A stretch of DNA of 22,725 bases, taken from the IMG/VR virus record IMGVR_UViG_2681813227_000023, positions 1 through 22,725 of that record. One strand, written 5' to 3'. This document shows positions 1 to 5,998 of the stretch, piece by piece. Position 1 is the stretch's first letter. Every line of letters begins with the position of its first letter. Position numbers and translations under genes: made by a program. The DNA is from a virus (Duplodnaviria; Heunggongvirae; Uroviricota; Caudoviricetes). The notes beneath the pieces were generated by a model, which had not been told where the DNA came from, did not search any database, and saw only the letters and a program-made list of their open reading frames with translations.

Positions 1-195
1 TTAATTATTCTGCTGATTTTCTTCCATCTCGGCTTCTGCCGCCAGTGATTCTATTTTATCTGCGAATATTGCTGACAGTGTTGCAAATTCAGCATCAGTG
101 ACAGCGGGAATTGGAACAAACCTGATCCCGCTGTGTGCAAGCATGTTTGCAGTTTCAAGGCATTTCCTTAAATCTGCTGGTGATGCCCTGTTCAT
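1..195 (-). CDS. Hypothetical small protein (64 aa), translationally coupled to the upstream methyltransferase
   Basis: ATG at 195..193 overlaps the methyltransferase TGA stop (194..192) as ATGA; own stop TAA at 3..1. The 104-aa version in the ORF track begins at a GTG inside the methyltransferase gene and is less likely. No recognisable motif. Confidence 0.4.
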   Translation of the reverse strand: MNRASPADLRKCLETANMLAHSGIRFVPIPAVTDAEFATLSAIFADKIESLAAEAEMEENQQNN

Positions 196-842
196 GCTGC
201 ACGCTCCCGCCCCTGATTGTCTGTTGGTGACAGCGGAGCATTGCTGAATGCATTTGTTAATCCGGCAATATCCAACGCGTATCCAGGGTGTAGTTGCACT
301 GCCGGGTCTTCGCACTGATTACCCCAAACATCGAAGCCATGAGACGACTGGCGGGCGAACAGTTCAATGCGAGAAACATCGCCTAACAATTGCACAAGTT
401 TTTCACGAACGATATCTGGTTTTCTTGAATGCTCAAGCCGCGGTGCGGTAAATGACTGAACGATCCCTGCATTAATGCGCGTAGGTAGTTTTCCCTTTAC
501 CGCAAACAGGCAATCTTCACTATTGGCGCGAGTCATGTGTCCCATACCCATAACCAGTTTATCTGGTTGTCGACTACCACATTTTATCCACGTGAAGCCC
601 TTCATGGTCATCAGACGGAATCCCCAGGCTTCAACAACTTTTAGTGCTTCGAGTGGTTGTGTTGGCACCCACCACATGGCCAACAGACAGTTTTTATCGG
701 CCAAGTCCCACACAGGAAGGCGGCAGATATCCAGCACACTCATAACCGGATATTTAAAACCTGCACCGCGATTACCATCTGCGGCTTTGTCCCGGTATAC
801 CCAGGGTGGATCTGCATAGATTAGTGTGTATTTCTTATTCAT
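192..842 (-). CDS. MT-A70 family DNA N6-adenine methyltransferase (216 aa)
   Basis: N-terminal MNKKYTLIYADPPWVY contains the DPPW catalytic motif typical of MT-A70/phage adenine methyltransferases. ATG at 842..840 preceded by GGGGTGG; the ORF-track GTG at 854 is an upstream alternative. Confidence 0.8.
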   Translation of the reverse strand: MNKKYTLIYADPPWVYRDKAADGNRGAGFKYPVMSVLDICRLPVWDLADKNCLLAMWWVPTQPLEALKVVEAWGFRLMTMKGFTWIKCGSRQPDKLVMGMGHMTRANSEDCLFAVKGKLPTRINAGIVQSFTAPRLEHSRKPDIVREKLVQLLGDVSRIELFARQSSHGFDVWGNQCEDPAVQLHPGYALDIAGLTNAFSNAPLSPTDNQGRERAA

Positions 843-1134
843 AAACCACCCCACAACATCCTATGCCGCTATAGTCGCCACGGCGAAGGCCGTTACCTTT
901 TGTGATACATTGGTCCCTGCGAACCGCGATCCTTGCACGCTCAACATCACCAGAAGCAACATCCATACACTGAAGCCAAAGGTGGGCGGCAATGCGGAAC
1001 TGCCCTTTTTTCTCTCTTTCAATCGCGCGTTTTTCGATCTCTATCGCCGCAGGAGTAACGGCAACAACCTTTGAAGGGCTGCGCATTGAAACCTTATTCA
1101 TGTGATATTTTTCAAGTCGGCTTAACTTTCTCAC
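835..1134 (-). CDS. Hypothetical protein (99 aa from GTG at 1134; 89 aa if ATG at 1101)
   Basis: Open frame whose TAA stop (837..835) overlaps the methyltransferase start by 8 nt in another frame. GAGAGGG lies about 9 nt upstream of the GTG. No recognisable domain. Confidence 0.35.
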   Translation of the reverse strand: MRKLSRLEKYHMNKVSMRSPSKVVAVTPAAIEIEKRAIEREKKGQFRIAAHLWLQCMDVASGDVERARIAVRRDQCITKGNGLRRGDYSGIGCCGVVYE

Positions 1135-1541: not shown

Positions 1542-2423
1542 TTACATAGATGTTTCGTTTAATTCTTCTCGACGAACGCTGTAAACATCGGTGGCTTTTG
1601 CCAGCAGTTCGTCATCATCTGAAAGTTTTTGTGCAATGTATTTGTAAGCCTTATCCAGTTCGGAGACAGTGCTGTAATTCATCGCTGCGCTGGTAAAGGC
1701 CATCAGCATTTCTTCTGGATCACGGCTATCCGCTTTACGCGTTTGCTCATCAGGCTTTTTCACTGTTTTAGCGTTGATCAGACTGTTCATTCCCGCAGCA
1801 GTGGTCGTTTGCGGAGTAATGTCTCGCTCAACGCGCGGTGCCGTTTCCTGTAATTCGTCAGGGGTGTAAACACCGAGAAGTACATCAGGAGCGTGCAGGC
1901 GAGCCCATCGTTTCGTGCAAAGATAGGCAAGCTGCTGGCGCGGATCCTGCTCCCACAATGGAGAGTTACGCACTCCGGCTTGCGCCATACTGATGGTAAG
2001 CTCACGGGGTTCTGCTTCTCCTTTAAGAACTGCTGACACAGTTACCGTCAGATTCGGTGATTTATCTGTTTTGCCGTTAACATTCGACCAGTCACCGCTC
2101 CAGCGATAATTCAGGCGTGTCGCTAGCAGGCTGGAAGAGGATACAACCGCGTTTACCAACTGTGCTTCGTAGCCTAACGTTCCGTTTACCACATGCGTTT
2201 TCTGCGCCACGGCGAAAGGGTTCATTCCCCACTGTGCCGCCTGCATGGTCACCGCCAGGCAATCGGCAGGTTTGCCTTCAAGATGTTTCGGCACAGTCGC
2301 TTTGCTTTGTGACATCAACTCCGCGAAACGCACCAGTTGATTCATGCCCTCGGGGCTGAAGATTGCCGCAGCAGTGCCTACAGTTGCGCCTGGTTGTGAT
2401 GTGATTGCGATATCATTGCTCAT
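1542..2423 (-). CDS. Single-strand annealing recombinase, Bet/RecT family (293 aa)
   Basis: WGMNPFAVAQKTHVVNGTLGYEAQL and a later ERDITP segment resemble lambda Bet (YGLNPW...GIVPVVGVDG; ERDITP). Start ATG overlaps the upstream exonuclease stop (ATGA). Confidence 0.75.
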   Translation of the reverse strand: MSNDIAITSQPGATVGTAAAIFSPEGMNQLVRFAELMSQSKATVPKHLEGKPADCLAVTMQAAQWGMNPFAVAQKTHVVNGTLGYEAQLVNAVVSSSSLLATRLNYRWSGDWSNVNGKTDKSPNLTVTVSAVLKGEAEPRELTISMAQAGVRNSPLWEQDPRQQLAYLCTKRWARLHAPDVLLGVYTPDELQETAPRVERDITPQTTTAAGMNSLINAKTVKKPDEQTRKADSRDPEEMLMAFTSAAMNYSTVSELDKAYKYIAQKLSDDDELLAKATDVYSVRREELNETSM

Positions 2424-3241
2424 ACGTACATATCCTGTTTACGTGCCCAGTCAGGGCGTTTAATAATTTCCACTCCGCCCCATTCATCGTTGATGCGGCA
2501 TTCGTGATAGGTATTCAGATCCCGGCGGAACAGAGCGTTCCCGGCATCGACATCTGGCGCATCCAGCTCGAACACGCGTACCGGATACCGACCACAATCA
2601 ATGCTTTCGCTCACGGCAAGAAAGAAAAAACCATGCGGCTGACCAGTAACCCTCATTGCGCCTTCGCGGTACATTGCGTCCTGCACGTGGTAGCGGAATT
2701 CCTCGATGTGACGTGCAAAACGGTCCATATCTGCAACCTTTTTCACGTCGACGATCACGTTGTGCTCGTTCAGCCATTTGTCTGGACGAATTCGGCACAA
2801 CTCACCCGTCTCTTCATCGTTCCAGTACATTGATGCTTCGCAGTAACCAGGTGCTTCCAACATCCAGCGTGCCGCTGGATGAGCCATTGCGCTATCACGC
2901 ATCAGCTCCAGTTTTCGCCACTGCTCGACATCAAGTACCGTAATACCCATATCCGCCACATCACGAAGAAGCATTTCTTCGTCAGCTTTACCTTGTTTTG
3001 TCCGACGATCGAATTTCGGTGAAACGATGAAGCGTTTGTCGAATTCTCCAGGTTCCAGAAGCAGGCAGTGCAATGCGGTTCCCATATCCAGTGCAGACTT
3101 TTTCTCTTCGTCTTCTGGTGCTGCCTGAACCCATTTAAGAAGCGCCGGATTCTTGGCAACCATGTCCAGTTGCGACTTACTCACGCCGTCACCTGCGTGG
3201 TAGTCTTCGTTGCTGATGTCGAAATAAATTCCCGGTTTCAT
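2420..3241 (-). CDS. PD-(D/E)XK exonuclease, RecE C-terminal-domain-like / exonuclease VIII-like (273 aa)
   Basis: N-terminal GIYFDISNEDYHAGDG and a D...VDVKK nuclease core (CRIRPDKWLNEHNVIVDVKKV). Sits directly upstream of and coupled to the Bet/RecT gene, the usual exo plus annealase pairing. Confidence 0.7.
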   Translation of the reverse strand: MKPGIYFDISNEDYHAGDGVSKSQLDMVAKNPALLKWVQAAPEDEEKKSALDMGTALHCLLLEPGEFDKRFIVSPKFDRRTKQGKADEEMLLRDVADMGITVLDVEQWRKLELMRDSAMAHPAARWMLEAPGYCEASMYWNDEETGELCRIRPDKWLNEHNVIVDVKKVADMDRFARHIEEFRYHVQDAMYREGAMRVTGQPHGFFFLAVSESIDCGRYPVRVFELDAPDVDAGNALFRRDLNTYHECRINDEWGGVEIIKRPDWARKQDMYV

Positions 3242-3711: not shown

Positions 3712-3726
3712 TTACCGTTGAGGTAA
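3712..3726. promoter_or_regulatory. Operator-like palindrome TTACCgttgaGGTAA (leftward operator region, site 1)
   Basis: Perfect 5-bp inverted half-sites with 5-bp spacer; one of six copies in the window. An extra TTACC half-site lies at 3699..3703. Confidence 0.5.
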
Positions 3727-3774
3727 TAATTATGCGTATTTGGTTTGATGTCAATAGATATGAGTTAAAAAAAA

Positions 3775-3802: not shown

Positions 3803-3826
3803 AAAAAAGCCGCCAGAAGGCGGCTT
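3803..3826 (-). terminator. Rho-independent terminator downstream of the repressor gene
   Basis: On the minus strand GCCGCC-TTCT-GGCGGC followed by TTTTTT, about 20 nt after the repressor stop codon. Confidence 0.65.
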
Positions 3827-3846: not shown

Positions 3847-4431
3847 TTATTGTTTGTTTTTTTCGTTCTGGTTGATGACAAATTCAATGTAACTTTCGAT
3901 CTTTGCTTTCTCGGTTTCAGGTAACAATGCGTAGCGCGAGCGGTCATAGTTGATAGTTGCAGGGTCGTGCGGGTGAATCAGTAGTTCATATCCGTGACGC
4001 CCGAATGCGGATGCAACATTCTCCAGGGTGGAAATGGAAACGCTGACCTCATTGTTTAACAGGCGGCTGATTGTCACCTGGGCGACGCCGGATGCGCGGT
4101 GAAGTTTTCCCTGTGTTGAAAGGTCGCGGCTTTCGCTCATCCAGCGTTCCAGGTTGTGAGCCGCCAGCTGACCAATGTCGCTTGGGCCGACAGGCTGAAA
4201 ACCTTCCTGAGAAAGCGAGCGATCGATATCAAGCCAGTTACGGGGTTTATTGGCGGCAGCTTCAATTTTTCGCGCAACCTGGTCGCCGATAACCTTCTTG
4301 CCAAGAGCCCAGCGGTTTACCAGATTTGCCTGAGTTCCAAGTTTTTCTGCCATCCGCGTCTGAACACCATTGAATTCACGGTCGATCAAGTCGTTGAGAT
4401 TTTGCCTGCGGACGTCCTGGATACTTTTCAT
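3847..4431 (-). CDS. Putative immunity repressor with two HTH-like segments and no S24 peptidase domain (194 aa)
   Basis: HTH-like stretches QTRMAEKLGTQANLVNRW and VAQVTISRLLNNEVSVSISTLENVASAFG. Transcribed divergently from a Cro-like gene across an operator-bearing intergenic region. No G-S-M / Ser-Lys dyad autocleavage motif seen. Confidence 0.65.
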   Translation of the reverse strand: MKSIQDVRRQNLNDLIDREFNGVQTRMAEKLGTQANLVNRWALGKKVIGDQVARKIEAAANKPRNWLDIDRSLSQEGFQPVGPSDIGQLAAHNLERWMSESRDLSTQGKLHRASGVAQVTISRLLNNEVSVSISTLENVASAFGRHGYELLIHPHDPATINYDRSRYALLPETEKAKIESYIEFVINQNEKNKQ

Positions 4432-5182: not shown

Positions 5183-5998
5183 ATGAGCAGACATGCAACA
5201 GATTGGGCCTGGGAGACAGATCCGGGTAGCTCATCATTAAAGCTCATACTGCTCTCGATGGCTGACAGAGCCGATGAATATAACCTCTGCTACCCCAGCA
5301 TAGAACGCCTCGTTAAAGACACTTGCCTGAATAAAAAAACCGTGCAGGCCGGGCTTATATCGCTCATGAAAATGGGGCTTATTTCAGATACCGGAGAGAG
5401 AAAGGGAGCGACAAAAAGAGTGCGGGTTTTCTCTCTTAATATAACCAAAAACGGGAACATTAAAGGCAACCGGGAGGGGGGCAATGAACCCGAAAACGGT
5501 AATGTTACCGAAAACGGGAATATACCCAAAAACGGGATGTTGAATGATCCCAAAAACGGGATGTTGAATGATCCCAAAAACGGGATCCAGAACCAGTCAT
5601 ATAACCAGTCATTTAACCAAGAGAGGGAGAGCAGGACAAAAAGCGGGGATTCTGTGCCTCATGACCCCGGAGCAAACAACGCCGTGATGAATAACTTTGT
5701 TCCTCCTGGTGGGCCAGGGCAATTAGGCAAATTTGTCATGCATGAACAATGGCAGCCATCAGATGACTTTCTTCGGAAAAGCTCATTGCAGGGGATCTAC
5801 CTGGACAGTCTGCCAACGGCACAGGAACTTGCAGAGTTCAGAATTTACTGGATGGCTGAGGGTAAGGCATACCATCAGGCACAGTGGGAGCAGAAGCTGG
5901 CAAGGCGGCTGCAGATTAGCAGACAGAAGCAATCAACATTACCTGATAACAACGTTCCGCACTGGAACAGCCCTGAAGCATGGGAGGATTTCTTGTGA
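5183..5998 (+). CDS. Replication initiator (lambda O-like role): N-terminal winged-helix, internal iteron-encoded repeats, DnaT-like C-terminus (271 aa)
   Basis: N-terminal ...LKLILLSMADRADEYNLCYPSIERLVKDTCLNKKTVQAGLISL resembles phage replisome-organiser HTH domains. Central low-complexity KNG-repeat region is encoded by DNA iterons. GGAG SD before ATG 5183. Sits directly upstream of the P-like gene. Confidence 0.7.
   Translation: MSRHATDWAWETDPGSSSLKLILLSMADRADEYNLCYPSIERLVKDTCLNKKTVQAGLISLMKMGLISDTGERKGATKRVRVFSLNITKNGNIKGNREGGNEPENGNVTENGNIPKNGMLNDPKNGMLNDPKNGIQNQSYNQSFNQERESRTKSGDSVPHDPGANNAVMNNFVPPGGPGQLGKFVMHEQWQPSDDFLRKSSLQGIYLDSLPTAQELAEFRIYWMAEGKAYHQAQWEQKLARRLQISRQKQSTLPDNNVPHWNSPEAWEDFL
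5445..5586. repeat. Iteron array (six copies of approximately CC(C/A)AAAACGGGA) inside the initiator gene: candidate replication origin
   Basis: Copies at about 5445, 5489, 5507, 5525, 5548 and 5572, the last three within an almost exact 24-bp tandem repeat (atcccaaaaacgggatgttgaatg); further short AACCAGTCAT repeats follow. Confidence 0.6.

Follow-up and report, generated by a model that had tools for sequence, protein, structure and literature searches.

A candidate Dam-like modulator of phage development: the MT-A70 methyltransferase of phiV10-type prophages and its small neighbors

Introduction

The closest assayed relative of the gene considered here is gp5 of the Stx2a phage phiPA8 (M.EcoPA8orf6770P; KP682374), an MT-A70 methyltransferase whose disruption lowers spontaneous induction and amoeba killing (Gong, Chakraborty, Koudelka; PMC10810198). 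A gp5 mutant in which the catalytic DPPW is changed to APPA fails to complement this defect, and the protein co-purifies 1:1 with the product of the gene directly upstream, gp6 or PNB-2, a predicted winged helix-turn-helix (wHTH) protein (PMC10810198). The gp5-PNB-2 complex prefers 16S rRNA in 30S subunits, and the authors suggested that the 27 C-terminal residues of the type found in E. coli that produce Shiga toxin (STEC) bind PNB-2 (PMC10810198). Other members of the family have been assigned to DNA. M.EcoGV of E. coli O104:H4 C227-11, called highly similar to phiPA8 gp5, methylated GATC in vivo when overproduced (PMC10810198) and is listed as GATC-specific in a methylome survey (Table 3 of PMC6602927). 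In a dam- host, p32 of Serratia phage BZS1 rendered plasmid DNA resistant to MboI and sensitive to DpnI while HinfI and Hin1II sites stayed open, identifying it as GATC-specific, and M.EfaBMDam of Tn1549, from the same subfamily, shares this specificity; p32 is 75% identical to the MT-A70 enzyme of phage HK639, and such genes adjoin the integrase (PMC7556043). The literature is therefore split between GATC methylation of DNA and partner-dependent methylation of rRNA. Here we analyze a natural variant with a conserved catalytic core and with another tail and other neighbors: an MT-A70 gene lying between two small open reading frames (ORFs) at the left end of a 22,725-nucleotide stretch of phage DNA (IMG/VR record IMGVR_UViG_2681813227_000023, positions 1 to 22,725; hereafter the window).

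The families of both small ORFs have been described in other settings. Lambda Orf63, a DUF1382 protein, is a small intertwined dimer and a pro-lytic protein of the exo-xis region (PMC10869804). Pch, the PerC homolog of enterohemorrhagic E. coli (EHEC), is an anti-H-NS regulator that activates the enterocyte effacement locus (LEE) and has no recognizable DNA-binding fold (PMC4764244).

Results

A predicted GATC-directed methyltransferase of phiV10-type prophages

The methyltransferase gene encodes 216 residues that match Pfam PF05063 over the entire profile (positions 1-172 of 172; E 2.8e-22; 79.9 bits against a cutoff of 23.9). The Pfam core covers residues 5-176, with no separate target-recognition domain (TRD). 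Within the catalytic DPPW motif, P12 and W14 are invariant across 20 homologs, and D11 and P13 are conserved in at least 90% of them. Sequence searches of the PDB returned Tetrahymena MTA1/AMT1 and METTL3, and METTL3 and MTA1 were also the top Foldseek matches of an AF2 model (E ~1e-9, TM ~0.6); this model, built on a 20-sequence alignment, is of low confidence (mean pLDDT 61.6) and bears on the fold assignment only, being unsuitable for judging a TRD or the tail. The first-pass annotation of the sequence, which had named the gene an MT-A70 adenine methyltransferase, is upheld by the full-length PF05063 match, the DPPW motif and the METTL3/MTA1-like fold, and we describe the product as a predicted small, single-domain, S-adenosylmethionine-dependent N6-adenine methyltransferase with an intact catalytic motif. 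In PHROG 359 (DNA methyltransferase) it matches positions 118-321 of 329, and since the match begins only at position 118, at least some phage members of the family carry ~117 extra N-terminal residues. PHROG 21315 places its MT-A70 part at positions 238-409 of 415.

The window belongs to a well-represented prophage type. Over bases 1-1500 it shows 98.4% identity to Escherichia phage phiV10 (NC_007804), an epsilon15-like temperate podophage of the genus Uetakevirus, and of 5426 complete E. coli genomes 559 carry this DNA, nearly always as a single, chromosomal copy; the chromosomal prophage copy is located beside guaA. The same three genes, in the same order and with the same overlaps, occur in phiV10 as PhiV10p33 (annotated as DNA methyltransferase), PhiV10p34 (PerC-family transcriptional activator) and PhiV10p32 (DUF1382 protein), at 97-100% protein identity. 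The methyltransferase gene is thus already annotated and its family partly characterized; the searchable literature yielded no experimental characterization of PhiV10p32, p33 or p34, and the RefSeq accession WP_000163456 matched no published paper. Over residues 1-187 the window enzyme is 82% identical to phiPA8 gp5 (154/187, BLASTP), through which its link to M.EcoGV runs, and it is 44% identical to the HK639 methyltransferase. By sequence, it falls in a clade carried by temperate enterobacterial phages beside the integrase. No homolog of PNB-2 or PNB-1 was found by tblastn anywhere in the window.

These comparisons lead us to a reading that we hold with moderate confidence: the gene may encode a Dam-like, probably GATC-directed methyltransferase that would be made when the left operon is derepressed and would tune phage development among exo-xis-type modulators. 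In the mechanism we propose, the gene would be the last but one in the leftward early operon that a phiV10-type (Uetakevirus) prophage carries, and because of this position infection or induction would lead to production of the enzyme alongside the recombination proteins. It would methylate GATC in DNA, as the three characterized relatives suggest, and could tune the lysis-lysogeny or induction balance, possibly via GATC sites in the phage's own origin; for this developmental role we draw on the analogy with phiPA8 and with Orf63 of lambda and phi24B. We prefer this reading because three relatives at increasing distance are GATC-specific, because the partner needed for rRNA activity is absent from the window, because the enzyme has no separate recognition domain, and because a Dam-positive host makes any anti-restriction gain small. 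Evasion of restriction is improbable since the E. coli host already methylates GATC, and by analogy the close relatives point to control of phage development and not to restriction escape.

A probable phage replication origin lies inside the replication initiator gene (5183-5998), where positions 5437-5614 of the plus strand hold six iterons of ~18-24 nt with the core CCNAAAACGGGA, followed by AACCAGTCAT(A/T)T twice. GATC sites at 5546, 5570 and 5584 fall in the last three iterons, which makes this origin a candidate target of the methyltransferase if the enzyme is GATC-specific.

A leftward early operon with overlapping genes throughout

The methyltransferase and its two flanking genes, all on the minus strand (Table 1), appear from consensus scans and gene order to form the distal end of a ~3.7-kb leftward early operon. 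The candidate promoter of this operon is the sole minus-strand promoter-like site upstream of it, a consensus match only. A terminator-like hairpin stands just upstream of this site, and beyond the operon the hairpin is followed by the repressor gene. Between 3726 and 1, a simple consensus scan of the minus strand returned no promoter-like or terminator-like site. The expression timing proposed above is what these promoter and terminator scans, together with the gene order, suggest. Upstream of the PerC-family gene and in the same orientation, the operon contains the genes for a 38-aa membrane protein, an AlpA-type protein, RecT and a PD-(D/E)XK nuclease, and one further ORF; with the AlpA-type gene begins an accessory segment that separates the recombination genes from the integrase. 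The integrase gene lies just outside the window: in phiV10 and in the chromosomal copy it converges on the DUF1382 gene and ends 3 nt past window position 1, so that the methyltransferase locus shows the adjacency to a temperate-phage integrase.

Both overlaps reported in the first-pass annotation, an 8-nt one between a 99-aa ORF and the methyltransferase start and an ATGA joint between the methyltransferase stop and a 64-aa ORF, are present in the sequence (Table 1), and the small ORFs on the two sides are genuine conserved genes by their Pfam matches (given below). The 8-nt overlap is specific to the phiV10 lineage, epsilon15-type relatives (epsilon15, SPN1S, Tyrion and BUCT phages) having a DUF1317 gene or more between the PerC and methyltransferase genes. 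As overlaps of 4 or 8 nt occur at 6/7 junctions of the operon, and as the ATGA joint is retained where a 219-aa NinI-like phosphatase gene stands in for DUF1382, these overlaps are not distinctive. They reflect compact translational coupling found throughout the operon.

Table 1. Features of the left end of the window and of the operon that reads into it (window positions)
Feature	Position	Strand	Evidence
DUF1382/lambda Orf63 homolog, 64 aa, last gene of left operon	1-195	minus	Pfam PF07131; PDB 8DSB
ATGA stop/start overlap, methyltransferase/DUF1382	192-195	minus	TGA 192-194, ATG 193-195, read from sequence
Predicted MT-A70 (beta-class) N6-adenine methyltransferase, 216 aa; ortholog of phiV10 PhiV10p33	192-842	minus	Pfam PF05063; PHROG 359
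Variable C-terminal tail of methyltransferase, aa 188-216	195-281	minus	BLASTP alignment with phiPA8 gp5 ends at residue 187
Catalytic motif IV DPPW, aa 11-14, GAT CCA CCC TGG	801-812	minus	Read from sequence
8-nt overlap ATGAATAA, PerC-like stop/methyltransferase start	835-842	minus	TAA 835-837, ATG 840-842
PerC-family small protein, 99 aa, GTG start after GAGAGGG	835-1134	minus	Pfam PF06069; PHROG 868
38-aa membrane protein gene, same operon	1131-1247	minus	phiV10 annotation; PHROG 17484; overlaps each neighbor by 4 nt
AlpA-type small HTH protein, probably excisionase or regulator	1244-1492	minus	Pfam PF05930, E 3.1e-5; annotation
Candidate left-operon promoter TTGACA-17-AATTAT, 10/12 matches	3726-3754	minus	Consensus scan
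Terminator-like hairpin ending repressor gene (3847-4431)	3807-3826	minus	Scan; terminator annotated at the equivalent place in phiV10

Elsewhere in the operon, RecT (1542-2423, minus) is 73-74% identical to phiV10 RecT and the genes flanking it are 97-100% identical; this divergence amid near-identical neighbors marks a mosaic allele swap. RecT and the PD-(D/E)XK nuclease are two overlapping ORFs in the window (1542-3241, minus) and a single 1761-bp RecE-RecT fusion in the phiV10 RefSeq record. CTAG is strongly depleted in the whole window (2 sites, where a Markov model predicts 17). Such depletion is usual in enterobacterial sequence and is unrelated to the methyltransferase.

An orphan enzyme outside known restriction and defense systems

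None of the 30 further ORFs of the window matches a second methyltransferase or a nuclease family; their matches are to families of phage replication, nin-type, terminase, portal and capsid proteins. In phiV10, no restriction enzyme or second methyltransferase is among the features listed over positions 1-35,680 of the 39,104-bp record, and no restriction-enzyme family occurs among 54 Pfam-tallied neighbors of homologs in other species. That tally contains NinB, RusA, single-stranded DNA-binding protein (SSB), antiterminator Q, other methyltransferases, a DndB-like protein and an HNH/NUMOD4 homing-type endonuclease, the only nucleases being RusA and the homing-type enzyme. With no cognate restriction endonuclease nearby, the methyltransferase is an orphan, in agreement with the first-pass annotation, which had seen no adjacent restriction endonuclease.

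The functions proposed there fit less well. Protection of phage DNA from restriction had been suggested for the enzyme, and the characterized relatives are GATC-specific (PMC7556043, PMC6602927, PMC10810198), duplicating host Dam, with prophage induction as the sole reported phenotype. The small ORFs had been offered as possible modulators of specificity or as parts of an anti-defense module; PADLOC matched neither small protein and assigned the methyltransferase to generic Type II MTase models only, and in PHROGs the PerC-like protein is classed with transcription regulation and the DUF1382 protein with unknown function. What stands of the earlier view is the orphan MT-A70 enzyme, the genuine coupled small ORFs and the precedent for a partner protein, and what finds no support is the role in anti-restriction and anti-defense.

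An Orf63 homolog downstream

The downstream protein matches DUF1382 (PF07131) over the complete profile (positions 1-60 of 60, E 1.3e-30) and the sequence of the lambda Orf63 dimer solved by nuclear magnetic resonance (PDB 8DSB, E 5.8e-13). By analogy it may be a pro-lytic dimer as well. It is 49% identical to phiPA8 gp4, another DUF1382 protein, whose gene lies directly downstream of the phiPA8 methyltransferase gene and overlaps its end by 41 nt. This arrangement, a DUF1382/Orf63 paralog directly 3' of the MT-A70 gene with a 41-nt overlap, is that of phiPA8-type Stx2a phages (L139, 2887-3099; L140, 2056-2268), and some Stx2a phage records hold a second DUF1382 copy several kb away. DUF1382 genes in lambda, 933W, VT2-Sakai and BP-4795 occupy an ordinary exo-xis context with no methyltransferase beside them. 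DUF1382 and DUF1317 are neighbors in lambda, 933W and BP-4795, and the same two families flank the methyltransferase in the phage group of the window. The methyltransferase therefore occupies the equivalent of the lambda accessory (exo-xis-type) region.

A PerC-family protein upstream

The upstream product is a predicted regulator of the PerC/Pch family. Its PF06069 match reaches 30.1 bits against a cutoff of 22.6, with only profile positions 5-50 of 90, the first half, matched, and it hits PHROG 868 (transcriptional activator) at E 2e-61. All 99 residues are conserved in homologs and the N-terminal 11 are kept down to ~60% identity; this conservation supports the 99-aa call against the phiV10 RefSeq annotation, which begins the gene 11 codons later. 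An AF2 model has a three-helix core (pLDDT 80-90) and a disordered tail with an invariant YSGI...GVVY. Foldseek returned no significant structural neighbor for this model (all E >1), and the structure accordingly does not discriminate between DNA-binding and protein-binding roles; weak, non-significant resemblance is to MIT/TPR peptide-binding modules and none is to HTH folds. Equating the PerC-like protein with PNB-2 was tried and rejected, as BLASTP gave no alignment and hhalign a probability of 0.1%.

Neighbors of the methyltransferase across phages and species

We compared, by tblastn and profile scans, loci that encode relatives of the methyltransferase: 51 were taken from species-representative genomes and 80 from viral contigs. 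At 63 loci the enzyme is at least 95% identical to that of the window; DUF1382 lies downstream in 44 of these and is replaced in 19. In all 19 the replacement falls at the gene boundary and leaves the tail of the methyltransferase unaltered. At three loci of ~82% identity (L121, L123 and L124), DUF1382 is found upstream instead, abutting the methyltransferase, and it is near none of the homologs in the 51 other species. The ORF that abuts the methyltransferase start is more variable still, belonging to more than 25 unrelated families, the largest being DUF1317 (8 loci) and PerC-like (6 loci). PerC is absent nearby in 38 of the 51 species-level homologs; within Uetakevirus, all 36 of the 36 phage records with the window's PerC subfamily also carry the methyltransferase. 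We read the two flanking ORFs as independent accessory genes comparable to those of the lambda exo-xis region; both belong to known families, and neither is a conserved partner.

The C-terminal tails of the enzyme diverge among homologs. The tail type of the window recurs in homologs 67% and 81% identical to it, and model confidence drops below pLDDT 50 from residue 202 onward. We considered whether the tail type tracks one neighboring gene and rejected the idea, the same tail being found beside DUF1382 or NinI, at loci with an upstream DUF1317 gene and at PerC-less loci.

In the Stx phage P27 (L138, 3301-3504, compared with L139, 1873-2304), another upstream ORF, of 67 aa, precedes the MT-A70 gene and shares with PNB-2 only the last ten or so residues (LYIDEFENAL). 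As this end alone is common to both, the recombination joint falls within the upstream gene, close to its 3' end. The joint preserves the sequence bearing the methyltransferase ribosome-binding site and the ATGA overlap.

Recurrent pairing of PerC-family and adenine methyltransferase genes

PerC-domain ORFs also lie directly upstream of MT-A70 genes outside Uetakevirus, in Lonsdalea and Acerihabitans (74-82 aa), and in Buttiauxella and Dryocola a weak MarR-type wHTH is fused to the PerC domain in proteins of 147-152 aa at the same position. When PerC-like proteins were chosen regardless of methyltransferases, five of seven had an adenine methyltransferase gene, of the D12 class or of the PF05869 Dam family, one or two genes further on; these look-ups drew on prophage PerC-like clades, the only ones reached by the profile search. 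A C5 methyltransferase and a PAPS-reductase-like gene often stand alongside the pairs. Taken together, Sodalis, Lonsdalea-type and other prophages (L146-L152) and loci L023-L026, L031 and L049 show PerC genes directly upstream of adenine methyltransferase genes of three families (MT-A70, D12 class and PF05869 Dam), often with a 4-8 nt overlap. This enrichment may be positional, since the prophages are related and methyltransferases are common early-region cargo.

Two proteins from public assemblies, P0005 (297 aa) and P0002 (263 aa), have the PerC-like protein fused in frame to the methyltransferase, P0005 joining ...GIGCCGVV directly to MTKKYTLIY.... With only 3 and 2 member sequences, respectively, these fusions may be frameshift or assembly artifacts.

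A broader idea follows the phiPA8 precedent, which gives a small specificity partner a real counterpart by analogy. PerC small proteins could be dedicated partners or controllers of phage adenine methyltransferases, the one in the window setting the substrate of the MT-A70 enzyme (a DNA motif or RNA) or its activity, the part played by PNB-2 for the phiPA8 enzyme; we consider this rather improbable. A literature search found no paper linking PerC or Pch to methyltransferases. If the idea were true, the PerC/Pch virulence regulators, whose mechanism is poorly understood, would gain a methylation-linked mode of action, and we treat the recurrence of PerC with adenine methyltransferases as a lead.

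Discussion

The proposal of a GATC-directed enzyme that tunes phage development has to be set against several observations that count against it. Purified phiPA8 gp5 alone is nearly inactive on DNA in vitro, unmethylated GATC included, and its authors regard the GATC methylation seen with M.EcoGV as an artifact of overexpression (PMC10810198). All solved MT-A70 structures act as heteromers, and the closest assayed relative is 82% identical, a distance at which specificity can change. The window has 88 GATC sites, exactly the number expected from mononucleotide composition and 0.70 of that expected under a Markov model, much as for other palindromes; these counts give no independent sign of GATC-related selection, for or against the specificity. 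The order methyltransferase-DUF1382 is kept between phiV10-type and Stx2a phages despite identities of 82% and 49%, and together with the recurrence of PerC-methyltransferase pairs this hints that the neighbors may not be fully independent. We go no further than an even-handed degree of belief because the in vitro data suggest that the closest relative, by itself, acts poorly on DNA, and because partners are usually required by MT-A70 enzymes.

That need for partners is the core of an alternative that we consider unlikely: a heteromeric holoenzyme in which the methyltransferase is nearly inactive alone and the PerC-like protein (835-1134) serves as specificity or adaptor subunit, the target possibly being 16S rRNA or another RNA. 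The precedent is phiPA8 gp5 with PNB-2, on a core 82% identical (PMC10810198), but the PerC-like protein is unrelated to PNB-2 and the window has no PNB-2. Also in its favor, eukaryotic MT-A70 enzymes are obligate heteromers, and the PHROG 359 profile has ~117 extra N-terminal positions ahead of its MT-A70 part. The 8-nt overlap of the two genes also speaks for a pair, yet epsilon15-type relatives place DUF1317 or more than 700 bp between PerC and methyltransferase, loci without a PerC gene within 4 kb (L015, L126) have the same methyltransferase tail type, and the majority of species-level homologs (38/51) have no PerC nearby. PerC ORFs abut MT-A70 genes in several separate clades, among them the wHTH-PerC fusions, which resemble the wHTH-plus-tail layout of PNB-2, and PerC-like proteins precede D12-class or PF05869 Dam methyltransferases in 5/7 look-ups; such adjacency could nonetheless be positional, both genes being early-region cargo in related, sampled prophages. 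The predicted helical bundle of the PerC-like protein, with its invariant disordered tail and no HTH resemblance, would suit an adaptor, against which PerC/Pch already has a described anti-H-NS activity (PMC4764244).

Less probable again is protection from restriction, in which the enzyme would methylate phage DNA against host restriction and the small ORFs would form an anti-defense module. Orphan phage methyltransferases often have this function (general knowledge, discussed in PMC5778455), an early-operon gene would act before packaging, and GATC methylation would block MboI/DpnII-type enzymes; in E. coli, however, the predicted specificity duplicates host Dam and would therefore add little protection, and a single-domain enzyme (Pfam core 5-176 of 216) has no separate target-recognition domain for a new specificity. 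Other phages of the family do carry the methyltransferase beside C5 and D12 methyltransferases and a DndB/DGQHR protein. The sole phenotype of a close homolog is altered spontaneous induction, and neither small ORF has a PADLOC match, each coming from a family for which another role has been described. We regard as very unlikely a functional pair of methyltransferase and DUF1382/Orf63, for example with the helix-binding cleft of Orf63 docking the C-terminal tail and the cassette traveling together. Such a pair would explain why phiV10-type podophages and phiPA8-type Stx2a siphophages share the gene order at 82%/49% identity and why DUF1382 still abuts the methyltransferase, on its other side, in L121, L123 and L124, but the phosphatase gene replaces DUF1382 in 19/63 near-identical prophages with the methyltransferase tail unchanged, and the tail itself differs between the phiV10-type and Stx2a groups. 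Some Stx2a phages keep a second DUF1382 in the exo-xis region, so that the methyltransferase-adjacent copy is an extra one, and both proteins have reported pro-lytic or induction phenotypes; against this, DUF1382 is missing beside 51/51 homologs in other species, and many DUF1382 genes (lambda, 933W, VT2-Sakai, BP-4795) sit in the exo-xis context with no methyltransferase.

The prevalence of the locus gives the proposed developmental role its interest. About one in ten complete E. coli genomes carries the phiV10-type prophage, whose methyltransferase is closely related to the Stx-phage enzyme that reportedly controls spontaneous induction and, through it, the release of Shiga toxin. Should the phiV10-type enzyme tune induction as well, lysogen stability would be affected in many commensal and pathogenic strains, and this would hold whether the effect ran via methylated GATC sites, such as those in the origin iterons, or via RNA methylation with another partner.

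Among experimentally studied systems, phiPA8 offers the closest likeness: its gp5 is an MT-A70/DPPW protein encoded near the integrase, ATGA-coupled to a small upstream ORF and followed directly by DUF1382. It differs in its proposed PNB-2-binding tail, which is replaced in the window (the C-terminal ~21-29 residues are unrelated), and in its upstream partner PNB-2. phiPA8 has a terminator just upstream of gp6-gp5 and, per unpublished RNA-seq of its authors, a promoter there, for which the simple consensus scan of the window found no counterpart. BZS1 p32, HK639 and M.EfaBMDam form a 'Dam-like' MT-A70 subfamily of enzymes that are small and integrase-adjacent in temperate phages, like the window enzyme. 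METTL3-METTL14 and ciliate MTA1c/AMT1 share its fold and DPPW and are its best PDB sequence and structure matches, and MTA1c acts on DNA; they are eukaryotic, are ~20-25% identical to it, and form obligate heteromers in which dedicated subunits bind nucleic acid. The non-specific methyltransferases M.EcoGI/II and Hia5 are likewise orphan and prophage-encoded; they are silent in lysogens and exemplify phage methyltransferases with an anti-restriction rationale. An M.EcoGII- or Hia5-type enzyme was nevertheless rejected for the window, as these belong to other families: M.EcoGI/II are 349-aa DPPY beta-class proteins with a TRD, and Hia5 is of the Dam-related alpha class. PerC of enteropathogenic E. 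coli (EPEC) and Pch of EHEC prophages are, like the upstream protein of the window, small prophage-encoded PerC-domain proteins, with anti-H-NS activation shown for Pch (PMC4764244) and not for the PerC subfamily of the window. Lambda Orf63, unlike the window's downstream protein, has other exo-xis ORFs such as DUF1317 and no methyltransferase as neighbors; it belongs to the same DUF1382 family and likewise lies between the recombination genes and the integrase.

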